Positions 2,704 to 22,065 of a stretch of 64,000 nt of DNA are shown one piece after another. The notes beneath the pieces are model-generated. The model was not told where the DNA came from, ran no database searches, and saw nothing but the letters and a program-made list of their open reading frames with translations. How positions within the stretch are numbered: position 1 is the first letter of the stretch; the number at the start of each line of letters is the position of its first letter. Where the stretch lies: assembly GCA_041752595.1 (NCBI GenBank), contig JBGSWE010000006.1, forward strand, positions 2,259-66,258. The letters are read 5' to 3'. This DNA comes from Candidatus Saccharimonadales bacterium (lineage in GTDB: Bacteria; Patescibacteriota; Saccharimonadia; Saccharimonadales; JACDBH01). The translations under genes and the position numbers were made by a program.

Positions 2704-3156
2704 CTAGGCAGCTATTACGCGGCCAAGTACAAAGCGCACAATAGTTTGTGACAGTGCAACTATAATTAAACCTATGATTGCATAGAGGATGGTGTTTTTG
2801 GCACTTGATACGTTAGTACTATCGCCAGCAGAGGTAATATATTTGAATCCTCCAATTATGATCATGATTACCGCTACAACACCAACTATCACAGAAAATA
2901 GGTTGATAACGTCGCCAATAAGATCATTAATAGCTTGTGTGGCCTCTTCAGCCGACAGACCGGTGTTGCAAGTAGTTGTAACATCCAGATTAGCACCAGC
3001 GCAGAGACTGTTTTGAATTTCGGCAGTAGTAGCAGTAGAGGGTGGGGCGTCTGCCTCTTGTGGTGGGGTTGTGGACTGGGCAGAGACAGATGTCACACTT
3101 AAGATAACTGTTAATCCAGTCAATAAAGTGGCTGACAAAATTTTAGTAAATGACAT
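2704..3156 (-). CDS. T4SS pilin-like protein (TrbC/VirB2-like), paralog 7
   Basis: Signal peptide (..VTSVSAQS), a two-Cys loop (CAGANLDVTTTC) and a C-terminal TM-loop-TM with GGFKYITSAGDSTNVSSAKNTILYAIIGL. Confidence 0.75.
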   Translation of the reverse strand: MSFTKILSATLLTGLTVILSVTSVSAQSTTPPQEADAPPSTATTAEIQNSLCAGANLDVTTTCNTGLSAEEATQAINDLIGDVINLFSVIVGVVAVIMIIIGGFKYITSAGDSTNVSSAKNTILYAIIGLIIVALSQTIVRFVLGRVIAA

Positions 3157-3196
3157 AATGAACTTATTATATCATATTTTTGCTGAGTGTGAATAC

Positions 3197-3670
3197 CTAA
3201 GCAGTAACTCTAGAAAGTACAAACTTAACGATGAACTGAGACAAGGCTACTATGACTAGACCGATAAGCGCATAGAGGATAGTGTTTTTAGCTGTACCAA
3301 CCTTGTTGCTGTCACCAGCAGAGGTGATGTATAGGAAGCCACCAACGATAATCATGATTACCGCTACAACACCAACAACAACTGAGAAGATGTTTATAAC
3401 ATCTGCTATTAGGCTGTTAACGTTATCGCCGGCACCTGCAGTTGCAGTTGCACAATCTGTTCCGTCTGCGCTAAATTCTAAAGTTGAACCTTCACAAACA
3501 TTGCCTTGAATATCTGCTTGTGCACTTACGCTAACTGCTGACAAAGAAGGGACGGCAACCAATAGGCCAAAGGCTGCGACTGTAATTAGTTGTTTGATTT
3601 TTTGTAACACTGTTTTATTTCCTTGTTTAATTATATCTTTAACATTATTTATACATTGAAAGCATACCAA
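3197..3670 (-). CDS. T4SS pilin-like protein, paralog 6
   Basis: Same architecture (CEGSTLEFSADGTDC; GGFLYITSAGDSNKVGTAKNTILYALIGL). A GTG at 3610 preceded by AAGGAA is an alternative, more signal-peptide-like start. Confidence 0.7.
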   Translation of the reverse strand: MVCFQCINNVKDIIKQGNKTVLQKIKQLITVAAFGLLVAVPSLSAVSVSAQADIQGNVCEGSTLEFSADGTDCATATAGAGDNVNSLIADVINIFSVVVGVVAVIMIIVGGFLYITSAGDSNKVGTAKNTILYALIGLVIVALSQFIVKFVLSRVTA

Positions 3671-4138
3671 TTACAAGCTTGTGATTGCAAGTGTTGTAAT
3701 GATGCTTGCTTCAGGTGGTGGTGGAGAGGTGGCCTCTTTTAGAACAAACTGCACTATCACTTGTGCAAAAACCGCTATAACTAGACCTACTAATGCAAAA
3801 ACTATGGTGTTTTTGGCGCTACTAACCTTGTTGGAATCACCTGCAGACGTTACATATCTAAATCCACCAAAAATCACCATAATAACCGCAACCACACCTA
3901 CGATAACAGATAGAATGTTTATAACGTCGGCAATAATACTTTCGATAGTTGCGGCGGGTGTAGCATCCGAACTCACACAGCCACCCCCGGGATCGGCTTG
4001 CAGCCCAAGACCCTGGCAGGCGGCTGATTTATTAGCGTCACTCACCTGGGCAGAAACTCCACCAACCAACACGCTTAGCAGTAAGGTGACCGTTATTGCC
4101 AATGTTATTAAGATATTGCTTTTTAAACTATTTATCAT
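3671..4138 (-). CDS. T4SS pilin-like protein, paralog 5
   Basis: Signal peptide, CQGLGLQADPGGGC loop, GGFRYVTSAGDSNKVSSAKNTIVFALVGL, and a Pro-rich tail. Confidence 0.75.
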   Translation of the reverse strand: MINSLKSNILITLAITVTLLLSVLVGGVSAQVSDANKSAACQGLGLQADPGGGCVSSDATPAATIESIIADVINILSVIVGVVAVIMVIFGGFRYVTSAGDSNKVSSAKNTIVFALVGLVIAVFAQVIVQFVLKEATSPPPPEASIITTLAITSL

Positions 4139-4148
4139 TTTTGAACTC

Positions 4149-4529
4149 CTATAATCTTCCTATGACGAATATTATTATTGATTGTGATAGTACGGCTAAC
4201 AAGAGTCCGGCAACAGCATAAAGGATGGTGTTTTTGGCAGAATTAACTTTGTTGGCGTCACCAGCAGAGGTGGTGTACTTGAGCCCACCAATAATTACCA
4301 TGATAACCGCCGCAACACCTACAAATATCGAAACTATTTGGGCCGCTCTAAGAATTATGCCGTTTGAGCCTGTTACTGGATCTTCTTGTGGCTGGCATAC
4401 AGCGGAGTCTTGTACGCCGTTACTGCAAACCTGTTCAAATGGATCTAATTGCGCAGATACAGGTATAGAAATTGCCATAATTAATAACAAGCTTAGTGAC
4501 GATATTGCTACTAGAATTTGTTTTAACAT
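4149..4529 (-). CDS. T4SS pilin-like protein, paralog 4
   Basis: Signal peptide (..IPVSAQL), CSNGVQDSAVC loop, GGLKYTTSAGDANKVNSAKNTILYAVAGL. Confidence 0.75.
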   Translation of the reverse strand: MLKQILVAISSLSLLLIMAISIPVSAQLDPFEQVCSNGVQDSAVCQPQEDPVTGSNGIILRAAQIVSIFVGVAAVIMVIIGGLKYTTSAGDANKVNSAKNTILYAVAGLLLAVLSQSIIIFVIGRL

Positions 4530-4531
4530 GT

Positions 4532-4828
4532 TTATATTCTCTCAATCACAAATGTTACTATTGCAAACCCAGACAAAGTAATTGCAAGGCCTATACAAGC
4601 ATAGATTACTGAATCACGAGCTTTTTTAACGCCAGCTGGATCTCCTTGGGATATTGTTAGCTTAAATGCGCTAATAGCAATAACCAGCACAGCTACAGCA
4701 GCAGCTACGCCGAAAAATAACTGAAGCCCATCCGTTAAAACGGGTTGGGTCAACGAATCTTTTGGAATATTTACACTATCACGTGGTATTGAGACTGTTT
4801 GTGCAATGAATTTATGTATATTTATCAT
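4532..4828 (-). CDS. divergent pilin-like two-TM protein, paralog 3
   Basis: It lacks the Cys loop and an obvious cleavable signal but keeps the TM-loop-TM core (AFKLTISQGDPAGVKKARDSVIYACIGL). Confidence 0.55.
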   Translation of the reverse strand: MINIHKFIAQTVSIPRDSVNIPKDSLTQPVLTDGLQLFFGVAAAVAVLVIAISAFKLTISQGDPAGVKKARDSVIYACIGLAITLSGFAIVTFVIERI

Positions 4829-4843
4829 GATTTATTTATAATC

Positions 4844-5305
4844 TTAACTTGTTATTGAACTTGCAACAAAGGCAACTATTCCTGTAGCTAGTAGTGAAAT
4901 AACCAAACCAATAAGTGCGTTTTGTATTGTTTGCCTTGCCGATGCGGCATTATCCGGCTCACCCTGAGAAGTTATAAACTTAAAACCTCCAATAAGCACG
5001 AACACTAGCGCAACAATTGTAGCGACTCGTAATAAGATTTCGATTAGTGCTAAGGCTATCAAACCAGATGCTGCCTGCCAATCAATTTCTCCATCTGTGG
5101 TTGCTGGACCGATAATTGCACAACGGTCACCGTCTCTGGGGCCAATTTCGAGATATCTGTACCAAGTCGGGAAACCCAAAAATGATGCTGAGCCGTCACA
5201 GTCCGCTGCAACTTGAGCGTAAGTTTTTGCAGGCACTACAACAACGTTAGTAAAAACTAAACTGATGGTGATTATTGCAATAACAACCAGATATCTCTTT
5301 ATCAT
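4844..5305 (-). CDS. pilin-like protein, paralog 2
   Basis: Signal peptide, two Cys (DCDGS...DRCAI), FPTWYRYL motif, and the core GGFKFITSQGEPDNAASARQTIQNALIGL. Confidence 0.65.
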   Translation of the reverse strand: MIKRYLVVIAIITISLVFTNVVVVPAKTYAQVAADCDGSASFLGFPTWYRYLEIGPRDGDRCAIIGPATTDGEIDWQAASGLIALALIEILLRVATIVALVFVLIGGFKFITSQGEPDNAASARQTIQNALIGLVISLLATGIVAFVASSITS

Positions 5306-5727
5306 GTTAGCACCCCGCCTGGCACTAAGTAATTTAGGAATCCATACATAAATATAAAGAACAAAAGTGCAATGATTGAATTCCTAATGCGATCCTTGGC
5401 AGCAGAGACTTTTTGCGGATCGCTACCTGCAGAAGAGTACTGAATGCCTGCAAATATCAACGATCCAGCTATTACCACTCCTACAATACCGCTCAAAACG
5501 TTAATGAATAACACTATGTAATCAAGAATGCCGCAGTGATCATCACTACCTTCTGGGGCACCGGCTCTTATGTTATCTCCTTGACAGTCATTTTTTACAA
5601 GCTGTGGCTGATCGCTAGGTGGTGGCGTTGTTTGGGCCATAACTTGTAATGGCATTGCAACAAAAATCGCCCCAACAAGGAGGGAGATGCTAAGTAATGA
5701 AAGTTTTTGTATTTTTGATAACAACAT
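5302..5727 (-). CDS. pilin-like protein, paralog 1 (first gene of the minus-strand operon)
   Basis: Signal peptide (..QVMAQT), two Cys (DCQGDN...DDHCG), and the core AGIQYSSAGSDPQKVSAAKDRIRNSIIAL. ATGA overlap with the next gene. Confidence 0.65.
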   Translation of the reverse strand: MLLSKIQKLSLLSISLLVGAIFVAMPLQVMAQTTPPPSDQPQLVKNDCQGDNIRAGAPEGSDDHCGILDYIVLFINVLSGIVGVVIAGSLIFAGIQYSSAGSDPQKVSAAKDRIRNSIIALLFFIFMYGFLNYLVPGGVLT

Positions 5728-9384: not shown

Positions 9385-10599
9385 ATGGCAACGTACAAGG
9401 TACTTCAAGACATTGAGGCTGATGATAAGTTATTAGGCCCACTCTCGCTCAAGCAGTTTATATTTGCAGCGATGTTTGTTGGTATCGGCGTAGCGATGTT
9501 TTTTATTGCTACCAGCCCAGCGCCAACATTTCTTAAGGCACCACTAATAGTTGTGTTATTTTTCCCAATGCTTTTAACCGGCTTTTTGGCGGCACCGATT
9601 AGCCGCGACCAGCCAAATGAAATTTGGCTACTGGCGAGGATTAGTTTTATGTTTAGACCACGCAAACGCATCTGGAACCAAGACGGTGTAAAAGAACTTG
9701 TAACAGTCACCGCACCAAAAAAAATTGTACATATATACACAAACAATTTATCTCAGTCAGAAGTTAGGAGCAGACTACAAGCGCTAGCTAATACTGTTGA
9801 TAGTCGTGGGTGGGCGGTCAAAAACGTTAACACTAATCTTTTTGCACAACCAGGCTACGCTGTTGATGGCGCTACTTCGGACAGATTAATATCGCCAATG
9901 TCTTTGCCCCAAGAGGTTTCAATTACAGACGTGACTGAGTCAGATGACATGCTTGATATCGCCAATAATTCTACAGCTGCACACCTAGATCAATTAGTTC
10001 AAGAATCTACTGCCGCTCAACGCCAACATGCATTATCGGCCATGAAACCAGCCGACCCCAAGGCCCAACCAACACCTAACGATTATTGGTTTATGAACCA
10101 GGCTGGGCCAACCCCGCAAATGCCTATGCCGACAGATTATTCAGTGTTCCAGGGTCAGCAAGTTGTGGCGCCCGGTACCGATGATTTGCAACCAACTGCA
10201 GAAGCCACCGCCGAAGAACAAGCACTAGTAAAAAAGATTGCTGCGGATAAGAAAGAGGCAAAATCTCATATCAAGGACCATATGCGTGTTTTGCAACCGA
10301 TTCATGATCATGACGGTAATCTTATCGACGCCGAAGAGCCTGAGCCAGAACCAAAACTTAACGAAGTAGATCCATATTTAGCTATGGCGGGCTTTGTTCC
10401 AAACAATCCAGTTCCTGTAGCACCAGTTCCGGTGGCAATAGATAATTCCGAACTACAAGATAAAACCCAGGTACCTGCAACCCCTAATCCTGCTATAATG
10501 GGGCTTGCTAGTAATGATGATTTAAACATTGCAACAATCGCCCGACAAGCAAAGCGCATCAGCGAAGAAGACGGCGAGGTTGTAATATCATTGCATTAA
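9385..10599 (+). CDS. PrgI/VirB3-like T4SS membrane protein with long Pro-rich C-terminal region
   Basis: The N-terminus YKVLQDIEADDKLLGPLSLKQFIFAAMFVGIGVAMFF followed by a second TM resembles the Gram-positive PrgI-family signature. It lies upstream of virB4, as VirB3 does in canonical systems. Confidence 0.55.
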   Translation: MATYKVLQDIEADDKLLGPLSLKQFIFAAMFVGIGVAMFFIATSPAPTFLKAPLIVVLFFPMLLTGFLAAPISRDQPNEIWLLARISFMFRPRKRIWNQDGVKELVTVTAPKKIVHIYTNNLSQSEVRSRLQALANTVDSRGWAVKNVNTNLFAQPGYAVDGATSDRLISPMSLPQEVSITDVTESDDMLDIANNSTAAHLDQLVQESTAAQRQHALSAMKPADPKAQPTPNDYWFMNQAGPTPQMPMPTDYSVFQGQQVVAPGTDDLQPTAEATAEEQALVKKIAADKKEAKSHIKDHMRVLQPIHDHDGNLIDAEEPEPEPKLNEVDPYLAMAGFVPNNPVPVAPVPVAIDNSELQDKTQVPATPNPAIMGLASNDDLNIATIARQAKRISEEDGEVVISLH

Positions 10600-11489: not shown

Positions 11490-11587
11490 GCAAGTTTTCG
11501 TCTATCCCTTATTTCAACAGGGCTTTGCTGCCATCTTTGAAAATTGTTAATTGTGAATTGTTAATTGCTCCTGAAAGGATCGTCTGA
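11486..11587 (+). CDS. candidate 33-aa coupling ORF bridging two T4SS genes
   Basis: ATG 11486 overlaps the upstream stop (ATGA) and its TGA (11585-11587) overlaps the virB4 ATG (TGATG). Peptide: MSKFSSIPYFNRALLPSLKIVNCELLIAPERIV. It is below the ORF-track size cutoff. Confidence 0.25.
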   Translation: MSKFSSIPYFNRALLPSLKIVNCELLIAPERIV

Positions 11588-13497
11588 TGGCTTTTGGTAA
11601 GAAACAACTCCAGATAGATCCAGTTGCACAAGCACAGGCCCAGAGAATGCGCGAAGAAGCAGAGGTTAGTGCTGCTTTTCAAAAGGGTGTTGGCGCATTA
11701 CGTGATTTTATTGCTCCATCATCAATTGAATTCCAGAGTAGCCATTTCCGAATTGGTACCAGATACGCAAGGACTTATTACGTCTATGGTTACCCAAGAC
11801 AAATTTTTACAGGCTGGCTAAGCAGTATGGTTAATATTGACGAAGTCATAGACCTTAGCATGTACATATACCCTGTCGAAAGCCAAGTTGTATTAGAAAA
11901 CTTACGCAAAAAAGTAACACAGCTCGAGGCTGGCGTACAGATAGATGCCGAAAAAGGTAGAATAAGGGACCCCGGCAAGCAAGCGGCGATAATAGATGCT
12001 GAAGAAATGCGCGACAAGTTGCAGGTGGGCGAGGAAAGATTCTTCCGATTCGGATTATACTTTACTTTGTACGGTAATAGTCTCGAGGAGCTTGAGTTTG
12101 TTAGTCATAAAGTGGAGTCGATGCTTGGTCAACAACTAGTTTATAGCAAGCCTGCCACAGCCCAGCAAGAGCAAGGACTCAACAGTACGATTCCTCAATT
12201 TACAGATCAGTTACAAATTAGACGCAACATGAACACTGGCGCGCTTAGTACAACATTCCCGTTCACTAGTGCTGATCTTAGCCAAGATAACGGCATTTTG
12301 TATGGCATCAATATGCATAACTCTGGACTAGTTATTTTTGATAGGTTCAGCCTAGAAAACGGCAACTCGGTTGTGTTTGCAAAATCCGGAGCTGGTAAAA
12401 GCTTTACTGTAAAACTTGAGGCGCTAAGGTCGCTAATGTTTGGTACCGAAATTTTTATTATCGATCCAGAAAACGAATACCAGCGCATGGCCGAGGCGGT
12501 TGGTGGAGCCTATGTACGACTAAGCCTGAACAGTAATACCCGTATTAATCCGTTTGATTTGCCCCAGGTTGTCGATGCAGAAGAAGCCGATAATGCACTT
12601 AGAAGTAACTTAATTACTCTTCATGGTCTATTAAGATTAATGATGGGTGGCGCTCAGGCGCAAATGCAGAGTCAGGGCGGGGCAATAACGCCGGCACTTA
12701 CTCCTGTTGAGGAGTCCGACCTGGATGCAGCCCTTATCGAAACCTACGCTAGAGCTGGCATCACAAACGATCCATTAACTCACCAGTCGCCGCCGCCAAC
12801 AATTTCTGATCTTTATGACGTGTTACTTCATATGGGTAATACTGGCCCTCAGCTAGCCCAAAGACTACGTAAGTATACTAGCGGTACCTTTGCTGGTATT
12901 TTTAGCCAGCAGAGTAATATTAATATCAACAACCCGATGGTAGTTTTTAATATTCGCGATCTAGAGGATGAGCTAAGACCAGTTGCTATGTATATTGTAC
13001 TTAATTATATATGGAACAAAACCAAGAGTGATAAACGCAGACGCATCTTGATAGTTGATGAAGCTTGGCAACTCATGAAGTACGAAGATTCGGCTAACTT
13101 TTTGTTTAGTCTTGCCAAGCGGGCTCGCAAATACAACCTGGGAATAACTACAATAACTCAAGATGTTGAAGATTTTATGGGCAGTAGAATGGGCCGAGCT
13201 ATTGTAGCTAACGCTAGTATGCAGATACTGCTCAAACAGTCGGCCTCTGCTGTTGATGTACTTAGTTCGGTGTTTAAACTTACTAGCGAAGAACAAAAAC
13301 GCCTAAGCCAGTTCCCGGTTGGGCAGGGCTTGTTCTTTGCTGGCCAAAACCATGTCCATATACAAATTATTGCCAGCCAAACAGAGACTGGACTCATAAC
13401 AACCAACCCTCAACAAGTTGCCTCAATCGAAGCTGGCGAAATTAATCAGCCACAAGGTACAATAGACCTAGATAATAGGTTAGCCCCGGGAATGTAA
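11587..13497 (+). CDS. virB4: VirB4/TrbE/CagE-family T4SS ATPase
   Basis: Walker A FAKSGAGKSFTVK, Walker B RRILIVDEAWQLM, and a VirB4-type N-domain (IAPSSIEFQSSHFRIGTRYARTYYVYGYPRQIFTGWL). Confidence 0.85.
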   Translation: MAFGKKQLQIDPVAQAQAQRMREEAEVSAAFQKGVGALRDFIAPSSIEFQSSHFRIGTRYARTYYVYGYPRQIFTGWLSSMVNIDEVIDLSMYIYPVESQVVLENLRKKVTQLEAGVQIDAEKGRIRDPGKQAAIIDAEEMRDKLQVGEERFFRFGLYFTLYGNSLEELEFVSHKVESMLGQQLVYSKPATAQQEQGLNSTIPQFTDQLQIRRNMNTGALSTTFPFTSADLSQDNGILYGINMHNSGLVIFDRFSLENGNSVVFAKSGAGKSFTVKLEALRSLMFGTEIFIIDPENEYQRMAEAVGGAYVRLSLNSNTRINPFDLPQVVDAEEADNALRSNLITLHGLLRLMMGGAQAQMQSQGGAITPALTPVEESDLDAALIETYARAGITNDPLTHQSPPPTISDLYDVLLHMGNTGPQLAQRLRKYTSGTFAGIFSQQSNININNPMVVFNIRDLEDELRPVAMYIVLNYIWNKTKSDKRRRILIVDEAWQLMKYEDSANFLFSLAKRARKYNLGITTITQDVEDFMGSRMGRAIVANASMQILLKQSASAVDVLSSVFKLTSEEQKRLSQFPVGQGLFFAGQNHVHIQIIASQTETGLITTNPQQVASIEAGEINQPQGTIDLDNRLAPGM

Positions 13498-13507
13498 CAA
13501 AAATACC

Positions 13508-16429
13508 ATGTCTACCATATATGACGATCAAGATACTCGCACAAAAGCTGATGATGATGAGCTACGCCGAATTACGGGCATAGATCCGGCAGAAGAAAAA
13601 AAGATGGAAGACAGCGCCGTTCATGACGGTGGTGTCGCTGGTAACACTGAACAAAAAGGCTTAAAAGATCTAAGCAAAGACAACAAAGGTTCAGAGAAAG
13701 ATAAAAGTAATCAAGATGGTTCAAGTCTATACACGGGAGATGAAGAGCCCGGTAATAGAAGTTTGCGTAGCCGTATAGTCAACCGTAAATCAGCTATGGG
13801 GGCGGGTGCAGCGGGATTGTTGGTAGGGGGTAGTTTTGGAGTATTTACAGTTTTATCTGGTCCTGCTCAGGTTATTCAATTAGCACAGTTACTTAATGTA
13901 AACTTTGAGGTTGGTCGTAATTCCAGCGAAAGTCGTATAGGACGTATGTATGAGTTTTATCGTACACGAAACGATCCGAGTAAGCGCAATGTTAGTTACA
14001 CTATGGAAATTGTATCCAGTAAATACATCCGACAACTCGACGCTCAAGGAATTAAACTTAACTACGACACACCAAGTGGACGACAGAGCAGTAGACTTCA
14101 GTCAATTAGCCTGGATGAATCAAACCCCAACTCTAGTAGAATTATAGAAAACCTGCGAAATAAGGGCTATACGGTTGATGGCGGGAACATTAATGTTCGT
14201 CAATTTGACATAGGTGAAAGGCGCGATATTCTAAAACTTGCAGTTGACACACCTAGCAAGGGTACTGCATCAAATGCCATTAAAAAACGAATACTAAGTG
14301 CACGGGCCGGGGTAGGGTTTCATGTGCTGGGAGACAGAAGAAGACCCGTAACCGAACGCCTAATAGATTGGCGTACAGAAAGAAAAGTTGAAAGATCCGA
14401 AGATGTAAAAACAGGAATAGACGCAACAGACGGCCGAAACCTAACCGGAACAGAAGCTGAGGGCGAAAACGGAGAAACAGTAAGAGTAAATGACGATATT
14501 GCAAATGAGGCAAATAACGGTATTCAGGAAGCGGAGTTAGTTTCAGACCTAGCAGAACGAAATTCTTTGGCTGATCGATTCAAAAATACAATAACCCGAG
14601 CATCCGGCCCAGCAGCAGCAGCTAGTGCAGTAATTGGTAGTCTTTGTGTTGCAAGAAGTATTGGCAATGAAATACCGGCCTATCAGCAAGCAAATATCAT
14701 TTTACCGATGGTGCGCATGAGCATGAACGCAATAAGTATTGGTAGCCAGGTACAGAGTGGGCAAGACATTAGTCTGGATGAACTAGGGGCTTTTACAGAT
14801 GATTTTTATGATGAAGAAACCCAAAGCTCTATATGGGGAGCTGCAGCAATACAAGCCACTCAAGGAAAAGAAGTAACTGGACCCGATAGCGAAGTTAAGC
14901 CTTCGGGGGTTGGTGAAAAACCACAACTGTTCGATATTGTAGATCAAATACCGTTGTTGTCTACCGCTTGTGGCATTCAAGATGGTTTTGGGAATTTTGT
15001 AAGGTCTATACCGCTCGTGGGCGATGTTGTTAATGTATTTGATAGTGCAGTTGAGGGTTCAATTAACTTAGCTCTTGGGCCGTTTGGGCTTAGTATTGGT
15101 GAGCTTATGGAGCGACTGATTGCGTTTTTGTCGGGCGATCTAGTGGACACTTTTGCAAAAGGTGCAAAGCTAGGTAATTATCAAGCAATTGGCGGAAGGC
15201 TGGCCGCAAACGAAACCGAGATTGCAAGTGGCGGTGTTGCTCTAAGCGATCGACAAGCATCTATACTTAATGAACAATTCAGACAAGAGTATGCCCTAAA
15301 GCAAAAAAATAAAAGTTTTTTTGCTAGAGTGCTAGATTTAGAGGATTCTGGTAGCTTAATTTCTAAGACTATTGTGCAGAACCCCGATATTGCCTCAATA
15401 CCTTCAATAGCAAAGAGCATTGCTGTTTTACCGTCTAAATTATTCGCCTCCTTAGGTAATAGTACTGGTCGTTTAATGCCTATGGCGGGGGCGCAAACGT
15501 TTACGCCCAGTTATGACTTTGGTGTGCCTCAATACGGATTTGGTGCCGACGAATTAGATGATACAAACTATGCAAACCCATACGACAATGCCGATATTGT
15601 TGAAGGTCCGGGCGGTAGTAATTTGCGTACACTTAATGAGCGTTGGGGAGATTGTTTTGCCAGCCGTATAGATCCAGACCAGAACTATAATCTCATAACT
15701 AGTGATTCTGTAAATTACTTTACTGATGAATATAGGGAAGAATGTTCACCACCTGCAAGAGGTACACAGGATTACGTAACGTTTAAACGTTACCGTTTTT
15801 ATTTGCTTGATAGCATAACTGCCAAGACATTAGCCTGCTATGAAGGTCTAGACGAAGCAGCATGTACACAGCTTGGTTTTAACCAATCACTTGCTGCAAC
15901 AACTACTGCCAGTCCTGCAACAGGAAATGCAGCACAATATATTCCTGATTGTGCGGCTAACGGTGGCAACGCAGCAATTGCCTGTACCGCAATTAATGAG
16001 TTGCTTGGGGTGCCTTATAGCAGGGAGCAGAGAGCAGCACCAACAACCCCTGATCCAGTGCCGTTTTTAGATTGTAGCGCTTTTACGGGTATGGCAGTAT
16101 ATAGAACGTTTGGTGTTAATTTAGGGGGCATAGCATCCGTTCAATATAGACGTGACCCGAACTTCCAAAACATTAACGTACAAGACATTCAACCCGGTGA
16201 CTTTGTTGGTCGGGGTACAGTAGCGACTGGAGCTGGAGGAAATGGTCACATCGGTATTGTAGTTAGCTACAATAGAGCAACCGGTGCTTTAGTAACCGCT
16301 GAGACAGACGGTAGAAGTAATCCGAGCCGTATTGTTACTAATAAAGGTTTGCGAATAGATAATCTTGGCACTTATGAATGGGCAGTGCGTTACATCGGTC
16401 CAAGAAACTCACCGGTAACACAACTATGA
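13508..16429 (+). CDS. 973-aa membrane-anchored protein with C-terminal NlpC/P60 cysteine peptidase domain (PrgK/TcpG/VirB1-role candidate)
   Basis: Charged N-terminus, one TM (GAGAAGLLVGGSFGVFTVLSG) and a large domain I could not assign. The C-terminus carries LDCSAFTGMAVYRTFG ... GHIGIVVSY, the Cys/His pair of NlpC/P60. Confidence 0.6.
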   Translation: MSTIYDDQDTRTKADDDELRRITGIDPAEEKKMEDSAVHDGGVAGNTEQKGLKDLSKDNKGSEKDKSNQDGSSLYTGDEEPGNRSLRSRIVNRKSAMGAGAAGLLVGGSFGVFTVLSGPAQVIQLAQLLNVNFEVGRNSSESRIGRMYEFYRTRNDPSKRNVSYTMEIVSSKYIRQLDAQGIKLNYDTPSGRQSSRLQSISLDESNPNSSRIIENLRNKGYTVDGGNINVRQFDIGERRDILKLAVDTPSKGTASNAIKKRILSARAGVGFHVLGDRRRPVTERLIDWRTERKVERSEDVKTGIDATDGRNLTGTEAEGENGETVRVNDDIANEANNGIQEAELVSDLAERNSLADRFKNTITRASGPAAAASAVIGSLCVARSIGNEIPAYQQANIILPMVRMSMNAISIGSQVQSGQDISLDELGAFTDDFYDEETQSSIWGAAAIQATQGKEVTGPDSEVKPSGVGEKPQLFDIVDQIPLLSTACGIQDGFGNFVRSIPLVGDVVNVFDSAVEGSINLALGPFGLSIGELMERLIAFLSGDLVDTFAKGAKLGNYQAIGGRLAANETEIASGGVALSDRQASILNEQFRQEYALKQKNKSFFARVLDLEDSGSLISKTIVQNPDIASIPSIAKSIAVLPSKLFASLGNSTGRLMPMAGAQTFTPSYDFGVPQYGFGADELDDTNYANPYDNADIVEGPGGSNLRTLNERWGDCFASRIDPDQNYNLITSDSVNYFTDEYREECSPPARGTQDYVTFKRYRFYLLDSITAKTLACYEGLDEAACTQLGFNQSLAATTTASPATGNAAQYIPDCAANGGNAAIACTAINELLGVPYSREQRAAPTTPDPVPFLDCSAFTGMAVYRTFGVNLGGIASVQYRRDPNFQNINVQDIQPGDFVGRGTVATGAGGNGHIGIVVSYNRATGALVTAETDGRSNPSRIVTNKGLRIDNLGTYEWAVRYIGPRNSPVTQL

Positions 16430-17007
16430 GCAATCGATTTAATATAAGGGTTTTTATTGTAATAGTTATTTTGCTGTTATTAGGTATTGTTGGGTTTAAT
16501 TTTCTATCACGTTCTACAGTAAATGTTGTTGTAGAAACGGGAAACATAGTTGGTGAAACGCAGGTTATATTAAATGACAATAAGCTATACCCAACTGGAC
16601 AGGACGGCGCAACCTACAGAGGTAAAACCGGCATAGGCAACCACGACATCCAAGTTGTTTCTCCGGGTTACGAAGCTTATTCAACACAAATATCAACCTC
16701 TATTCTTTCAAATGAAACTGTTGTAGTAACCCTAAAACCAATTAGCCCGGAATTAATTGCGAAAGAACTGTATGGTTTTAGTGATTTAATAAACGTAAGT
16801 GGTGCGCGTTTTTTTGGTAATAATAGCTGGCTTGTTTTTTCTGTTTCAGATAAAGGTGTGGATGCGGAAGGTAGTATAGTGGTGGCAAAATTTGATGATG
16901 GTTTAAGAACATGGAGTATAGTGGACGAAGGAACAGATATCGATACTTCTCAAGATAAATACATCGATGCCCCTACTGATTTAATTAGTTTTTTGAGGGG
17001 TTATTAA
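16426..17007 (+). CDS. signal-anchored protein with PEGA-like beta-sandwich segment
   Basis: ATG 16426 overlaps the upstream TGA (ATGA). N-terminal TM, then GNHDIQVVSPGYEAYSTQISTSILSNETVVVTLKP, which resembles a PEGA domain. Confidence 0.45.
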   Translation: MSNRFNIRVFIVIVILLLLGIVGFNFLSRSTVNVVVETGNIVGETQVILNDNKLYPTGQDGATYRGKTGIGNHDIQVVSPGYEAYSTQISTSILSNETVVVTLKPISPELIAKELYGFSDLINVSGARFFGNNSWLVFSVSDKGVDAEGSIVVAKFDDGLRTWSIVDEGTDIDTSQDKYIDAPTDLISFLRGY

Positions 17008-17008
17008 T

Positions 17009-18859
17009 ATGTTTTGGTTAGCGTTAAAGAAAAATATCCGGCGACTAGCTGTTCTTTTAGTGCTGGTTGTTTTTTCGACTAACACAGTTGCCTTAGCGCT
17101 TACACCAGAACAAAAGAGGCTAATAGATTCAGGAGTGCGTGAATTTAATATAGAAGCTGATGCCGAGTGTAATACTACGGGTAGTGGGTCTAGTAGTGGG
17201 TCGGTTTATATGCTGGGTGACTCAATTACTGTCCGTTCTACACCCGCACTACAAACCGCTTTCCAAACCAACAATCAACCTCTGCAGAAAATCAACGCCG
17301 CTGTAGGTCGTTCAATTACAGCTCCGGGTGAGGGAACCGAGACTGGATTACAGGTTCTCTTGAGTGATGCATCCGATATCGCCGCCTCTGGATCTGTAGT
17401 TATTGCTCTTGGCACCAATCCTTCCGGTGCTAATGAAGACGGCGTTAGGCAAGTATTTAACGCAGTTAGAGCTTCTAATCCCTCGGCGAGAATATTTTGG
17501 GTGAACATATTTTCACCCGCCGCCATCAACAGGGAGTCATTTAATCAAACTTTGGTTACTCTATCTTCAAGTTTAGGTTTTACGGTTATAAATACTAACT
17601 CCGCTGGAATTGAGATGGTTAGTGACGACATACACCCAAGCACAAATGGCTCGGCAACTTTTGCCCAAACAGTTGCCGCAGGACTAAGTGGTGGCTCTAG
17701 TGTTGTGTCAGCAACTGGGTGTGCTTGTAGTTTAGGTGGTAGCTTGGGTGGTAGCCTAGATCGTAACACTCGCTATCAAGCTACCTGGGCTTACTTTATA
17801 GAAAAAGGTTTATCGCCTGAAGCTACTGCTGGACTTATGGGCAACCTAGAAGCTGAGTCAGGGATTGACCCTCAAAACACTCAAAATAACGCACCAGCAC
17901 CGGATGGTCCAGAAATACCGATTGATGCAATTCGTGGAAGGTTTGGTTATGGTATCGCCCAGTGGACAAGCGCCGGTAGACAAGACAACCTTATTGCCTT
18001 TGCGCGTCAAACAAATAGATCAACTGGTGACTTAGGCTTGCAGCTTGATTTCCTTTGGAAAGAACTTTCAGAAAGTTATACTGGTGTATTAACAGTATTA
18101 CAGACACCCGATGTCAGCTTAGCCGAATCATCTGCAGAAGTGTTATTGCGTTTTGAGATACCAGCCTCTGTACTCGGGGGTGCAGCAGAAAGACAGGCAA
18201 CAATTCTAGCTAGACAAAGGCTTGGTGAGGCAATATTTAATGAATTTTCCGGTCAGACAATTTCTAGCAGCACGGGTGCAGGTTGTAATACAAGCGGAGT
18301 AGCAATTGATCTCACCGATACAGACACAACCGATATTGTTTGTGGTGCTGGTACCGTAGATTCAGGCAACGCCCAAGGCTATAGAGATGGTCAGGTTATA
18401 CAAATAAGGTTGTGTCAGGTGGGCGGTACCAGAATAAACTCACAGCTTGCTGGTTCTATAGCTCGCATGTTGTCTGACGCATCATCAGCAGGAGTAGCAC
18501 TAGGAATTAACGGTGGATTTCGTGATATGCAGGGCCAAATAGATATATATAACAGTTGGTGCGGTAGAGCAGGCATTACCCCAACCCCGCCACCTTATCC
18601 TAAGACACAAAGGTCAGATTATCAGTCTTGTCCGGGTGGTGCCCCGCCAGGCTATTCAAACCACCAACAAGGTTTAGCCGTTGATTTAGAGTGTAATGGC
18701 CAGCTTATTGCTCAATCCTACACATCCGCTCAAAATAATCCATGTTTCCAGTGGCTAGTAGCTAATGCTAGTAAATATGGTCTTTATGAGTTTGGTAAAG
18801 GCCAAGACAGAACTCGAACAGGATATGAAGCCTGGCACTGGTCAGTGGATGGAAACTAA
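17009..18859 (+). CDS. secreted tri-domain cell-wall hydrolase: SGNH/GDSL esterase-like + phage-tail-lysozyme-like + M15 (VanY-type) peptidase-like
   Basis: Signal peptide. SGNH blocks VYMLGDSITV and DDIHPSTNG. Lysozyme-like GLMGNLEAESGIDPQN...GYGIAQWT. M15 signature GYSNHQQGLAVDL ... EAWHW. Confidence 0.65.
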   Translation: MFWLALKKNIRRLAVLLVLVVFSTNTVALALTPEQKRLIDSGVREFNIEADAECNTTGSGSSSGSVYMLGDSITVRSTPALQTAFQTNNQPLQKINAAVGRSITAPGEGTETGLQVLLSDASDIAASGSVVIALGTNPSGANEDGVRQVFNAVRASNPSARIFWVNIFSPAAINRESFNQTLVTLSSSLGFTVINTNSAGIEMVSDDIHPSTNGSATFAQTVAAGLSGGSSVVSATGCACSLGGSLGGSLDRNTRYQATWAYFIEKGLSPEATAGLMGNLEAESGIDPQNTQNNAPAPDGPEIPIDAIRGRFGYGIAQWTSAGRQDNLIAFARQTNRSTGDLGLQLDFLWKELSESYTGVLTVLQTPDVSLAESSAEVLLRFEIPASVLGGAAERQATILARQRLGEAIFNEFSGQTISSSTGAGCNTSGVAIDLTDTDTTDIVCGAGTVDSGNAQGYRDGQVIQIRLCQVGGTRINSQLAGSIARMLSDASSAGVALGINGGFRDMQGQIDIYNSWCGRAGITPTPPPYPKTQRSDYQSCPGGAPPGYSNHQQGLAVDLECNGQLIAQSYTSAQNNPCFQWLVANASKYGLYEFGKGQDRTRTGYEAWHWSVDGN

Positions 18860-18869
18860 TGGAGAAAAT

Positions 18870-19604
18870 ATGCGAAATATAGCAACAAAACGAAACGTTT
18901 TAATATTGTTTTCGGGCTTAATTATTGCCAGCTTAGTAATTTGGACATTATTTTTTAATACTAGCAGTGTAGTAAATCCCAATAAAGACAAAAACCTAAA
19001 CCCGGATGACGGTATTAGCTATGCTGTACTTTATGATTATGCTGAGGTTTTTAGCGTTATTGATGAAAATGAAGATGTACTAAGATCAATCCAAAAAGAC
19101 CTGTTGTTTTTTGCACGCAGCACAAGGCAGGAATTTTCAGATAATACTGTTTTGGTCGGTTTTACATTTGTTGATGAGGACGAAAATTATAAACAAAATG
19201 AAACTTCATTCTTTACTGGTTACTTTTATGGTCTGGAGGATAAAATTCAAGTAAGTTTAACCCCTTATGGCCGAGGAGTATATACGTTATCAATAACAAA
19301 TCTAAAGGATTCAACGAATATTGATGACTCTTTAAGTATGAATGGTCAAAGAAATCGTTTTATTATTACCCTACCGATAGAAAAGTCTTTTTACTCAATT
19401 AGGTATCAACTTACTGAAGATAGGATAGTAGTTAGTTTTTACGATGGTTACACACAGAAAGATATTGATGAAGTAATAGCGACCATAAATTCTGGATTTG
19501 GTGAAAACAATCTAGATGATGTTGTTTATAGCATAAATCGAGTTGGGATTGTTAATTTAGACCAGGTAGGCCAAAACCTTATTACTCCTTTGTTACAGCT
19601 TTAG
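18870..19604 (+). CDS. N-terminally anchored protein, last gene of the T4SS operon (VirB8/TcpC-role is speculation)
   Basis: ATG 18870 is preceded by GGAG (18861-18864). TM segment VLILFSGLIIASLVIWTLFF, then a soluble domain of about 210 aa with no recognisable motif. Confidence 0.45.
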   Translation: MRNIATKRNVLILFSGLIIASLVIWTLFFNTSSVVNPNKDKNLNPDDGISYAVLYDYAEVFSVIDENEDVLRSIQKDLLFFARSTRQEFSDNTVLVGFTFVDEDENYKQNETSFFTGYFYGLEDKIQVSLTPYGRGVYTLSITNLKDSTNIDDSLSMNGQRNRFIITLPIEKSFYSIRYQLTEDRIVVSFYDGYTQKDIDEVIATINSGFGENNLDDVVYSINRVGIVNLDQVGQNLITPLLQL

Positions 19605-20663
19605 CTAGCCCAGAGGAATAACTCTGCAGTTATTAAGGAATGTTTGAACCACTACATCGGCGTCGGTGGTGGTTATGAATGTTTGATATCTTTGCAGGTG
19701 ATCAGTTAGTAGGTGCCTACGCTTGCCGTCGAGTTCACTAAACACATCGTCTAGTAGCAATAGTGGTTTTTGGCCGCGTTGGTTTTCTAGTAGTTGTAGT
19801 TCAAAAACCTTAAGAGCTAGAAGGGTGGTGCGGGTTTCTCCGCGCGAGGCAACCTCGGCAGCAGGATGACCATTATAACTAACCAAAAAATCGTCTCTAT
19901 GTGGCCCGTAAGACGTAAATCCGCGTATTTTGTCTTGTTCAAGCGAGTTTTCTAGTGCCTGCATAAGTGTTGTTTCGTAGTTATCGATTGGTAATTTGCT
20001 AACATATTTAATACTCATGTCGGTTTTTTTATTGCCAGCAATTTCGTTATATAGGCTCGGTAGCGCTAGTTGAATTTCGTTTATAAGCTCGTTGCGGTGC
20101 CTGGCAATAACACCACCCAGCTCACTAAGCCTAAGGTTCCAAACAAAAAACTGTTCGCTTGGTGGATTATTGTGACTTTTTAATAAGGCATTTCGTTGAG
20201 TTAAGACTCTCCTATATTGCTTTCGCAGGTTCTTGAACTCGGGTATGGTTTGTTCTAGTAGGTTATCCATATAAAGCCTGCGTTGTTCTGGTTGACCATG
20301 CAAAAGCTGTAAATGATTAGGTTCAAAAAGTACTACTGGCAGTGTATTTTTAAGTGTTAGAATTTTATATGGTTTTTCTTCAAACACGTAGTTTTTGGTT
20401 AGACGACCGTTTTCTAATGAAATTTTTAGCGTTCTTATATCAGAATCATTTGCCGTGTCTATTCTTGACCAGTTTTTTTCAAACTGCACCAGCTCGTCGT
20501 CTTTAGCTCGATAAGACGATCCAATACACGACGTTAGAATTGCTTCTAACAAATTAGTTTTTCCACTACCGTTCGGGCCAACAATAATATTAACTCCCGC
20601 CTCAAACTCAAAAGAATCATCCACGTAGGAGCGAAAGTTTTGCAAACGGATACTTTGAATCAT
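19605..20663 (-). CDS. recF: DNA replication/repair protein RecF
   Basis: MIQSIRLQNFRSY..., Walker A GPNGSGKTNLLEAI, Walker B LLLLDDVFSELD. Synteny with dnaN-dnaA. Confidence 0.9.
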   Translation of the reverse strand: MIQSIRLQNFRSYVDDSFEFEAGVNIIVGPNGSGKTNLLEAILTSCIGSSYRAKDDELVQFEKNWSRIDTANDSDIRTLKISLENGRLTKNYVFEEKPYKILTLKNTLPVVLFEPNHLQLLHGQPEQRRLYMDNLLEQTIPEFKNLRKQYRRVLTQRNALLKSHNNPPSEQFFVWNLRLSELGGVIARHRNELINEIQLALPSLYNEIAGNKKTDMSIKYVSKLPIDNYETTLMQALENSLEQDKIRGFTSYGPHRDDFLVSYNGHPAAEVASRGETRTTLLALKVFELQLLENQRGQKPLLLLDDVFSELDGKRRHLLTDHLQRYQTFITTTDADVVVQTFLNNCRVIPLG

Positions 20664-20685
20664 TAGTCTTATTATAGCTCAGTCG

Positions 20686-21777
20686 CTATGAGCGAAGTGG
20701 CATGACTATGTGTTTATAGTCAGTGTTTTTTGGATCTGATAGTAATGATGGGTCAAGTTTTCCGTTGAACTGCAATGTAACTTTATCTCCGCTAAGCACA
20801 TGTAATGCGTCTAATAGATACCTTGAGTTAAGTGTAACCTCGCCGCTACCAACAACTTCTGCACTAGCACTGGCGGTATTTTCGCCGAGCTGTGAGGCGA
20901 TAGAATTAATACTAACTTGCTTAGACACTTCATCAACTTTAATAGTTACACTTCCGGCACTTTCGCGTGCAAACAGTGATGATACTTTAGTGATGTTTGT
21001 AAAATCTTCTTTAGAGAGTGTTGCTATAACTTCAAATTTACTAGGAATAAGCTTCCTATAATCTGGATATGCTCCGTCAATTAATCTAGAAACTAGCTCT
21101 ACTTCACCAACACGGAATAATACCTGTTGTTCGTCGTGAGTTATACTAACTGTTTCTTCGCCGTCACCCAAAATGCGCAGTAAATCTTGCATAGCTCCAG
21201 CAGGAATAAGTAAAGATACTTTGTCTTTGTTTTTTAGTAAGGCTTTTTCAGCTAGTCGATAACTGTCGGTTGCTACCAAATAAAGCATGTTATCAAAACT
21301 ATGCAGATAAACACCAGTTAGAACAGGTCGGGCTTCGTCGCTAGAAGCTGCCATTACTGTTTGTTGCAATCCTTTTTTAAGAACTGATGCTGTAATTTCA
21401 AAACTTGTACCTTTAGAAATCGCTGGCATAACCGGAAAATCGTCTGCTGCAATTCCGTTGATTGTAGATTTGTATTGGTCTGCTGTTATATGAAGTTTGT
21501 GCTCGTCTAGCTCAAGACTTATAACGCCACTTGGTAAGCTAGCTACAAAATCTTGCATAAGCCTAGCAGGAACAGTTATAGAGCCTTCTGATGAAACCTT
21601 TGATCCAATGTACTGAGTTATAGCAATGTCTAAATTAGTAGCAGAAACACTTAGTCGGTTGTCTACTGTCTTTAAAAGAACGTTACTTAGTATAGGAAGA
21701 GTGTTCCTAGTATTAGCAATTCGTGCGACTGCTCCGAGTGCTTTGCTTAGGTTTTCCTGGGTGACTTGTAATTTCAT
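20686..21777 (-). CDS. dnaN: DNA polymerase III beta sliding clamp
   Basis: The 363-aa length and three-domain pattern are typical (MKLQVTQENLSKAL...ILSNVLL...). It lies directly downstream of dnaA. Confidence 0.9.
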   Translation of the reverse strand: MKLQVTQENLSKALGAVARIANTRNTLPILSNVLLKTVDNRLSVSATNLDIAITQYIGSKVSSEGSITVPARLMQDFVASLPSGVISLELDEHKLHITADQYKSTINGIAADDFPVMPAISKGTSFEITASVLKKGLQQTVMAASSDEARPVLTGVYLHSFDNMLYLVATDSYRLAEKALLKNKDKVSLLIPAGAMQDLLRILGDGEETVSITHDEQQVLFRVGEVELVSRLIDGAYPDYRKLIPSKFEVIATLSKEDFTNITKVSSLFARESAGSVTIKVDEVSKQVSINSIASQLGENTASASAEVVGSGEVTLNSRYLLDALHVLSGDKVTLQFNGKLDPSLLSDPKNTDYKHIVMPLRS

Positions 21778-22065
21778 TAATTTATCCCTTTATTTGAATA
21801 GTTATCATATATATAAGCCCTGTGTATAGTGTGTACAACCAACGATTTAACAGATGTGAATGTGGTATAAGATTGTTCAAAAACTGTATACAAAAATGGT
21901 TGCAGTAGTGGGATAAAAACCGTCTTCTTGGATGATTTATGCACCGCCTTTTGTGGCATCGTTAGGTGCATGTGTACAAGCCTAGTAGTCTTCAAGACGT
22001 TTGTGTGCAGTCTATGCCCAGGCTTTCCACAGAGCCAAAACACATTATCAGAAATTAAGTATTTT

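Follow-up and report, generated by a model that had tools for sequence, protein, structure and literature searches.

A predicted exported wall hydrolase with SGNH, lysozyme and M15B peptidase domains in the type IV secretion gene cluster of a Saccharimonadales bacterium

Saccharibacteria are ultrasmall parasitic bacteria which need a secretion gene cluster to live on their hosts. Here we describe one gene of such a cluster, located on a stretch of 64,000 nucleotides (the window; positions 2,259 to 66,258 of contig JBGSWE010000006.1, assembly GCA_041752595.1, of Candidatus Saccharimonadales bacterium). The gene (17009..18859 of the window, plus strand) codes for a protein of 616 aa that comprises an SGNH esterase-fold domain, a lysozyme-like domain and a zinc peptidase domain. 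It is rather likely that this protein is the Sec-exported wall hydrolase of a type IV secretion system (T4SS), acting in turn as de-O-acetylase, muramidase and stem-trimming peptidase where the T4SS and its pilus cross the peptidoglycan (PG).

The saccharibacterial T4SS is reported to have no recognizable relaxase and to be essential for epibiotic growth (PMC10633639), and it has been described as the first T4SS that is essential for the survival of its carrier (PMC12857230). The T4SSs of Patescibacteria have been described as homologous to the conjugation machinery of monoderm bacteria (PMC12102498). Accounts of the coupling protein differ: none was recognizable in one study (PMC10633639), whereas a review of 2025, which also lists a VirB1-like component for the locus, names a VirD4-like component (PMC12857230). 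In “Ca. Southlakia epibionticum” ML1, the 643-aa protein SEML1_0006 combines a glucosaminidase, a phage-tail lysozyme and a cysteine peptidase domain, the 1113-aa protein SEML1_0007 carries a C-terminal M15B peptidase domain, and SEML1_0005 is a PEGA protein (PMC10633639); all three were scored as essential by transposon sequencing (PMC10633639, PMC12102498).

The gene in the window occupies the slot of SEML1_0006. In ML1, too, the genes for the hydrolase and a PEGA protein lie together with those for VirB4, a large and a small protein, recF comes next, the hydrolase is an exported three-domain PG hydrolase with a Phage_lysozyme2 domain, and the pair of hydrolase and large protein includes an M15B module. 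The modules are distributed differently, however. The window protein has an SGNH domain in place of the glucosaminidase of SEML1_0006, which lacks SGNH, and it carries the M15B domain itself, whereas in ML1 this domain is part of the large neighbor; here, the large neighbor apparently ends in an NlpC/P60-like module instead. The slot is essential in ML1, where the protein, however, has a different set of domains. The preliminary description of this DNA had stated that T4SS-associated hydrolases normally possess one or two activities. This is too narrow, given the three domains of SEML1_0006 and the title of a paper on PrgK of pCF10, which calls that protein a multidomain hydrolase. Multi-domain, even three-domain, hydrolases are already known from this slot, and the prediction of three activities is unexceptional.

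Among monoderm systems, the closest counterparts are PrgK (pCF10), TraG (pIP501), CwlT (ICEBs1) and TcpG (pCW3), which like the window protein are encoded beside VirB4 and PrgI and combine an N-terminal anchor or signal (in our case recognized by inspection) with a glycan-cleaving and a peptide-cleaving module. A similar arrangement occurs on the Enterococcus plasmid pHG52, where PrgI and VirB4 are followed by a 606-aa protein with Phage_lysozyme2 and NlpC/P60 domains (“phage tail tip lysozyme”). In many plasmid-borne hydrolases of monoderm bacteria, a module of the same kind as the lysozyme of the window protein does the cutting of glycan: there were 85 plasmid matches, 69 of them on plasmids typed as conjugative and most of them in genera of the Firmicutes; no SGNH or M15B module was present among these 85 matches. 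We propose that the hydrolase is the functional counterpart of VirB1, PrgK and CwlT in the monoderm-type T4SS of Saccharibacteria, i.e., a three-module PG-modifying enzyme in the equivalent slot of the cluster.

The open reading frame (ORF) has exactly the extent given in the preliminary description, and an identical protein was found both on the contig of the metagenome-assembled genome (MAG) at NCBI and in a Logan assembly. Translation starts at an ATG codon that is preceded, at a distance of 8–13 nt, by the Shine-Dalgarno-like sequence GAGGGG; the stop codon of the upstream gene lies 1 nt before the start. Inspection and hydropathy analysis revealed a signal-peptide-like or membrane-anchor segment (aa 1–31; 17009..17101, plus strand) with the basic residues K7, K8, R11 and R12, a hydrophobic core (aa 13–23), which is the sole strongly hydrophobic segment of the protein, and the sequence A28-L29-A30. 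An AlphaFold model contains a helix at aa 2–29, and all full-length homologs of the alignment likewise begin with a hydrophobic segment. Judged by eye, the N-terminus may act as a Sec signal peptide or stay uncleaved as an anchor. All ten cysteines are kept in 18–19 of 19 homologs, which fits an exported, disulfide-bonded protein.

The presence of three separately folded domains, namely an SGNH domain, a phi29-gp13-type lysozyme domain and an M15B zinc peptidase domain, was confirmed by Pfam, AlphaFold and Foldseek, i.e., by profile and structural evidence for each of them. AlphaFold2, run on an alignment of 19 three-domain homologs of 41–60% identity (from which all conservation counts for close homologs given here are taken), predicted three well-folded domains connected by disordered linkers at aa 42–63, 229–250 and 419–430. 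Foldseek searches of the PDB recovered SGNH enzymes with the N-terminal, phi29 gp13 with the middle, and VanY_B and LdcB with the C-terminal domain. All sequence motifs noted previously are present, and they contain the expected active-site residues: GDSITV comprises G70-D71-S72, DDIHPS comprises D206 and H209, GLMGNLEAESG contains E283, SNHQQGLAVDL the residues H552 and D559, and EAWHW the residues E607 and H610, while GYGIAQW is likewise found. The catalytic residues of all three domains, i.e., Ser and His of the SGNH domain, Glu of the lysozyme and the His/Asp/His zinc ligands plus catalytic Glu of the peptidase, are invariant or at least 90% conserved among the 19 homologs, being kept in 18–19 of them; neither a missing domain nor a missing catalytic residue was found when we looked for such defects.

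Alignment and the AlphaFold model locate an invariant GCxCS motif (C238-x-C240; 17720–17728) within the disordered linker (17693..17758, plus strand) that joins the SGNH domain to the lysozyme domain. In the wider SGNH-lysozyme family, the consensus likewise shows a CxC at this point. The motif and the conserved C54 flank the SGNH domain on either side. The motif could form a disulfide staple, bind a metal or act as a tether.

The SGNH domain (aa 64–228; 17198..17692, plus strand), delimited by Pfam, a domain model, Foldseek and alignment, contains the typical blocks I (G70-D71-S72), II (V99-G100-R101), III (G135-x-N137) and V (D206-x-x-H209), which carry the Ser-His-Asp triad and the oxyanion hole. 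Among the 19 homologs, conservation of G70-D71-S72, G100, G135-x-N137 and D206-x-x-H209 is complete or reaches at least 90%, and the GDS, G-T-N and H residues are also kept in 64 more distant SGNH relatives. A 59%-identical ortholog (locus L002) matches PF13472 with 33.7 bits and PF00657 with 24.5 bits, both above the cutoffs. Modeled alone, the domain reached a predicted local distance difference test (pLDDT) value of 94.9 and a predicted template modeling score (pTM) of 0.91, and showed the three-layer α/β/α SGNH fold; Foldseek, run with this model at E ≤ 1e-3, matched the PDB 43 times, SGNH enzymes making up nearly all of these matches. The closest solved relative is the catalytic C-terminal domain (OatA-C) of the PG O-acetyltransferase OatA, which renders bacteria resistant to lysozyme: the profile match to OatA-C of Staphylococcus aureus (SaOatA-C) had an E value of 5e-12 over the full length, as compared to 3.5e-7 for the next best match, and superposition of the structures gave a template modeling (TM) score of 0.80 and a root-mean-square deviation of 2.8 Å. 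PatB (5e-5), thioesterases of the TesA type (about 1e-4) and Ape1 (0.008 to 0.6) were matched more weakly. These relationships place the module in the clade of enzymes that handle the 6-O-acetyl group of N-acetylmuramic acid (MurNAc).

Like SaOatA-C (PDB 6WN9/6VJP), the domain is compact (OatA-C comprises about 160–170 aa) and shows the GDS, VGR, GTN and DxxH blocks. OatA-C, however, is a transferase that is supplied with acetyl groups by an AT3 membrane domain, whereas the window protein lacks a donor domain, no AT3 domain being detected in it by Pfam, and the partners of its SGNH module are PG hydrolases. The role that we propose rather resembles that of Ape1, an SGNH esterase which removes 6-O-acetyl groups from MurNAc so that a glycan-cleaving enzyme can act; Ape1 of Neisseria cooperates with the lytic transglycosylase LtgA (PMC7083599). 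The Ape1–LtgA partnership is non-covalent, whereas SGNH and lysozyme are fused here. Ape1 moreover contains an inserted carbohydrate-binding domain, in contrast to the SGNH module of about 165 aa, which has no insertion; matches to Ape1 are distant (Foldseek E values 2e-4 to 1e-3) and cover only part of the 350–380-aa Ape1 chains.

While a word-indexed search for relatives of the SGNH module gave 2 matches, phmmer, run exhaustively against 1.84 billion representatives, retrieved 575, of which 159 had E values ≤ 1e-10, almost all within proteins of 500–1200 aa. Pfam domains accompanying the module in the best 64 of these 575 were Phage_lysozyme2 (43), Peptidase_M23 (36), SLT/SLT_2 (8), Beta-lactamase2 (6), Amidase_2/Amidase_3 (5), Glucosaminidase (4), GH3 (3) and Peptidase_C39_2 (1); an AT3, MBOAT or lipase-type partner occurred in none of these 64 nearest relatives. 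The commonest architecture, SGNH plus Phage_lysozyme2 plus M23, corresponds to a gp13-like two-domain enzyme with an added SGNH module, and a few relatives carry Beta-lactamase2 or GH3 instead. The kinship with OatA-C, together with fusion partners that are nearly always PG hydrolases and in no case acetyl-donor domains, suggests that the module probably removes O-acetyl groups from MurNAc ahead of the lysozyme. A link to O-acetylated PG, which had been put forward before as a condition, is thereby strengthened; homology alone would fit either hydrolysis or transfer.

The lysozyme-like domain (aa 252–418; 17762..18262, plus strand), assigned by Pfam, Foldseek and alignment, matches Phage_lysozyme2 (PF18013) at aa 256–397 with an E value of 3.5e-26 and 92.5 bits (cutoff, 28.2). 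The gp13 protein of phage phi29 is its sole solved relative at E ≤ 0.01 in profile comparison, with a marginal E value of 8e-4; Foldseek aligned the module to the gp13 structure 3csr with a TM score of 0.74. E283 aligns with Glu45 of gp13 and is invariant (19/19), and the likewise invariant Q292 aligns with Gln54; Glu45 is the proposed catalytic and Gln54 a substrate-stabilizing residue of gp13 (PMC10394673, citing Xiang 2008). E281 had also been considered as catalytic glutamate, but was dropped, being kept in only 14 of the 19 homologs. The window protein shares with gp13 (PDB 3CSQ/3CSR) the helical, lysozyme-like PF18013 fold, both aligned residues and the order of a lysozyme followed by a peptidase; it differs in that gp13, a virion protein, pairs the lysozyme with an M23 peptidase and has no SGNH domain.

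The C-terminal part (aa 436–616; 18314..18856, plus strand) was identified by Pfam, Foldseek and alignment as an M15B zinc peptidase of the LdcB/VanY type with an N-terminal β-hairpin subdomain. VanY (PF02557) is matched at aa 475–612 (E 3.3e-20; 72.6 bits, cutoff 25). The zinc ligands H552, D559 and H610, the catalytic E607, and R505 are invariant (19/19) and align with the motifs of LdcB. Nearest in profile comparison were LdcB of Bacillus anthracis, Streptococcus pneumoniae and B. subtilis, and VanY_B (E 3e-12 to 2e-10). Scores against the NCBIfam models remained far below the family cutoffs, both for LdcB (NF041194; 34.5 bits, cutoff 275) and for VanY (NF000472/3; 25.4 and 23.6 bits, cutoffs 425 and 400), and the module is classified on this sequence evidence as a member of the superfamily outside LdcB or VanY proper. 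It has the H-x6-D...H ligands, the catalytic Glu of E-x-x-H and the conserved Arg in common with these enzymes, but differs from them by its extra N-terminal β-hairpin, by a conserved Pro/Cys-rich insertion at about aa 523–541 (PTPPPYPK...DY..C), which is absent from LdcB, and by being a module of a T4SS protein rather than a housekeeping or resistance enzyme. The earlier suggestion that the domain trims peptide stems agrees with its closeness to the LD-carboxypeptidase LdcB and the DD-carboxypeptidase VanY. Specificity for the L-Ala-D-Glu bond, as in the endolysin peptidases Ply500 and LysB4, is disfavored by the far weaker profile matches to these proteins (E 0.007 to 0.03), even though the insertion could alter specificity.

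The association of the hydrolase with a T4SS, claimed in the preliminary description, is real. The genes on the plus strand code, in this order, for a 948-aa and a 154-aa protein, a PrgI/VirB3-like T4SS protein (9385..10599), a 288-aa protein, the VirB4-type ATPase of the T4SS (11587..13497), a large VirB4-adjacent protein of 973 aa with a probable NlpC/P60-like C-terminus (13508..16429), a PEGA-like exported protein of 209 aa (16378..17007), the hydrolase, and a conserved protein of 279 aa, or 259 aa, as the last gene of the cluster (18765..19604). The PrgI/VirB3-like protein was assigned by a family match and the ATPase by a family match and synteny. Gene junctions of 1 nt or overlaps connect the hydrolase gene to VirB4, from which it is two genes downstream, and recF, dnaN and dnaA follow directly after the cluster on the minus strand. 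The order PrgI, 288-aa or TraC-like protein, VirB4, large protein, hydrolase, small protein, recF, dnaN, dnaA is kept in 10 Saccharibacteria-type loci (L002–L006, L010, L011 and L012–L014), judged as far as each locus extends. In addition, family matches revealed seven tandem genes for T4SS (VirB2-like) pilins (2704..5727, minus strand).

In relatives, the three domains of the hydrolase occur both fused and split. About 20 homologs retain SGNH, lysozyme and VanY, while seven relatives of 438–480 aa are devoid of the SGNH domain, their other two modules being 45–58% identical to those of the window protein. At locus L011, the large protein encoded upstream has VanY as its C-terminal end, and the gene that follows has only SGNH and lysozyme; at L010, the large protein again ends in VanY, followed by a gene for SGNH with weak glucosaminidase and NlpC/P60 matches, and at L003 the large protein ends in M23. 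Further variants of the slot combine SGNH and lysozyme with CHAP, lysozyme with M23, or SGNH and lysozyme with Amidase_3. The C-terminus of the 973-aa protein in the window contains a DCS...GH motif, gives a weak structural match to NlpC/P60 (E 0.02) and is 49% identical to the C-terminus of the hydrolase at L010. The different ends of the large protein (NlpC/P60-like, VanY, M23, and M15B in ML1) indicate that the two neighboring genes exchange modules. Hydrolases are only 33–59% identical between loci whose VirB4 proteins are 81–86% identical. Hence, the hydrolase and large-protein genes share a pool of catalytic modules which is reshuffled between lineages. What appears to be undescribed is the SGNH module; the finding is of interest mainly for this module and for the way in which the slot evolves by cassettes, less for how many domains there are.

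VanY-domain proteins are also encoded in three MAGs labeled “uncultured Gammaproteobacteria” (L007, positions 6617–7792, 391 aa; L008; L009). The VanY domains of L007 and L009 are about 53% identical to aa 439–616 of the window protein, and that of L008 is 44% identical over a longer stretch; T4SS synteny is absent from all three, and recF is only 26–28% identical. These records could stem from mis-binning or from another lineage, or the module could have been transferred horizontally.

According to the mechanism which we propose, the protein would be exported by means of its N-terminal signal or anchor, and its three flexibly linked modules would act on the PG where the T4SS and its pilus must pass. 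The OatA-C-like SGNH domain would hydrolyze the 6-O-acetyl group of MurNAc, a modification that blocks lysozymes, whereupon the gp13-type lysozyme (Glu283) could cleave the glycan strand. For the M15B module (H552/D559/H610, E607), the most plausible role is to strip the terminal D-Ala that is needed for re-crosslinking, which would keep the opened patch from being closed again; alternatively, if the insertion has changed its specificity, it may cut within the stems.

Several considerations weigh against this scheme. LdcB/VanY-type carboxypeptidases trim stems but do not open the mesh of the wall. The match of the window protein itself to Lipase_GDSL_2 (PF13472; aa 69–215, E 1.2e-6, 29.6 bits) falls below the gathering cutoff of 32.9, and the closest characterized relatives of the SGNH domain, OatA-C and PatB, are transferases, not esterases, the window protein even having the V-G-R of Block II in common with SaOatA. 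AlphaFold did not predict the relative orientation of the domains (pTM 0.39), and all three enzymatic activities are predictions from sequences and models. The preliminary interpretation therefore stands in part: the domains, the active-site residues, the T4SS context and the trimming of stems are supported, while the statement on the number of activities and the idea of a complete toolkit for breaching PG are not borne out, the latter since a carboxypeptidase leaves the mesh unopened.

Whose wall is attacked is a separate matter. The earlier idea of an enzyme tuned to the wall of a host is inferential, with indirect support from the fast swapping of modules beside a VirB4 that stays 81–86% identical. 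That the host wall at the contact between epibiont and host is among the targets we hold to be slightly the better bet, considering the swapping of modules next to a conserved machine, the lack of an OatA-type enzyme in ML1, and the essential role of the T4SS in epibiotic growth. The main competitor, appreciably less probable but still a serious one, is an assembly factor that, in the manner of PrgK, TraG, CwlT or TcpG, would act on the cell's own wall only, making a local gap there, and whose SGNH domain would de-O-acetylate the cell's own PG. Gene position and ancestry speak for it: the gene has the same VirB4-adjacent position as the hydrolases of monoderm conjugation systems, to which the patescibacterial T4SS is homologous (PMC12102498), and a Sec-type N-terminus would deliver the protein to its own wall first. 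Classic T4SS hydrolases of monoderm bacteria act on the wall of the donor itself, and their systems move DNA. On the other hand, modules are swapped freely between close relatives that should have similar walls, while their VirB4 proteins remain 81–86% identical. Self O-acetylation is moreover not evident in ML1, since this strain has neither an OatA-type fusion of AT3 and SGNH nor an MBOAT protein, but only an OpgC-like AT3 protein. No AT3 or MBOAT domain was detected among 40 ORFs scanned in the window either, a result which covers 64 kb only and is uninformative genome-wide.

A reversed reaction, in which the SGNH domain would be an O-acetyltransferase like OatA-C or PatB and would, for example, shield the cell's own wall from its own lysozyme, is improbable. 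In its favor, the best sequence and structure matches of the domain are C-terminal domains of OatA, and V99-G100-R101 fits the (V/I)(G/S)(R/V) motif of OatA. The Val/Ile of Block II is invariant in OatA-type enzymes and promotes transfer (PMC5697884), OatA-C being a transferase with weak esterase activity; replacement of this Val by Gly or Ala in SpOatA decreased transfer 5–10-fold and slightly increased hydrolysis. In the hydrolase family, however, the position is unconserved, with Gly in 11 and Val in 5 of the 19 close homologs and variation in the wider family, and the residue at Ser+4 is Gly or Arg, never Asp. SaOatA has an Asp at Ser+4, which we take to be Asp457 (Ser453+4), presumably the water-coordinating residue that restrains hydrolysis; a review describes a water-coordinating Asp of OatA without giving a residue number. 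To our knowledge, there is no extracytoplasmic acetyl donor, and a fused AT3 or MBOAT domain is found in 0 of 64 relatives. Acetylated MurNAc, finally, would block the fused lysozyme. Hydrolysis is favored by the absence of a donor domain, the unconserved Val of Block II, the consistent lack of Asp at Ser+4 and this expected block.

Still somewhat less probable is a role as lipase or lysophospholipase, by which lipids of the host membrane would be attacked or harvested; Saccharibacteria are unable to make fatty acids. The JGI label of one homolog reads “lysophospholipase L1-like esterase”, and TesA-type thioesterases are among the weak profile matches. Among 8 million full texts searched, no publication was found in which an SGNH domain is connected with the T4SS hydrolase of Saccharibacteria; the sole mention of saccharibacterial SGNH hydrolases, in an earlier genome paper, reads them as lipid-related (PMC6031116). 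We reject this reading because the top neighbors in structure and profile are PG O-acetyl enzymes and carbohydrate esterases, and because almost every fusion partner in the subfamily is PG-active. The remnant of a phage tail lysin or endolysin, lying near the T4SS by chance, is extremely improbable: PF18013 is the phage-tail lysozyme family and the module matches 352 phage records, but phage and plasmid collections gave single-module matches only, none covering 80% or more of the hydrolase, which argues against prophage or plasmid origin, the position in the T4SS cluster is strictly conserved across Saccharibacteria-type loci, and no phage genes are found nearby.

The remaining features of the window are described briefly. 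The seven pilin paralogs are divergent; six have been reported in the literature for S. epibionticum ML1. The gene of the 279-aa protein overlaps the 3′ end of the hydrolase gene by 95 nt (18765–18859), if the start of the longest ORF is used, or by 35 nt according to the Logan call of 259 aa, which suggests translational coupling; its product begins with a transmembrane-like segment and matches no Pfam family. The cluster abuts recF-dnaN-dnaA (19605–23436, minus strand), the presumed region of the replication origin, and this adjacency is seen in every sufficiently long locus. The region from 24 to 64 kb is devoted to the biosynthesis of surface polysaccharides, with GT1, GT2 and GT4 glycosyltransferases, a Wzy_C ligase, PMT_2, UDP-glucose dehydrogenase, epimerases, a DegT aminotransferase, an ABC transporter ATPase, GlmS and Bac_transf. 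The GC content dips to 0.34–0.37 at about 32–46 kb.

The hydrolase slot emerges as the most variable part of the saccharibacterial T4SS. The fusion of a relative of a lysozyme-resistance enzyme to a lysozyme offers a testable idea of how an epibiont could pass the lysozyme-resistant wall of a Gram-positive host, and also of a reason for the differences in cassettes between lineages. The more specific proposition that the SGNH module is an OatA-derived esterase which strips the O-acetyl shield of the host, so that its presence and the peptidase cassette determine host range, is possible, though we regard it as doubtful; if true, SGNH and cassette would track the wall chemistry, e.g., the OatA status, of the parasitized Actinomycetota. 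Beyond this organism, the approximately 160 cluster representatives with E ≤ 1e-10 make up a sizeable family of OatA-C-like SGNH domains combined with PG hydrolases which we did not find described in the literature searched, and such fusions may serve as enzybiotic parts against O-acetylated walls.

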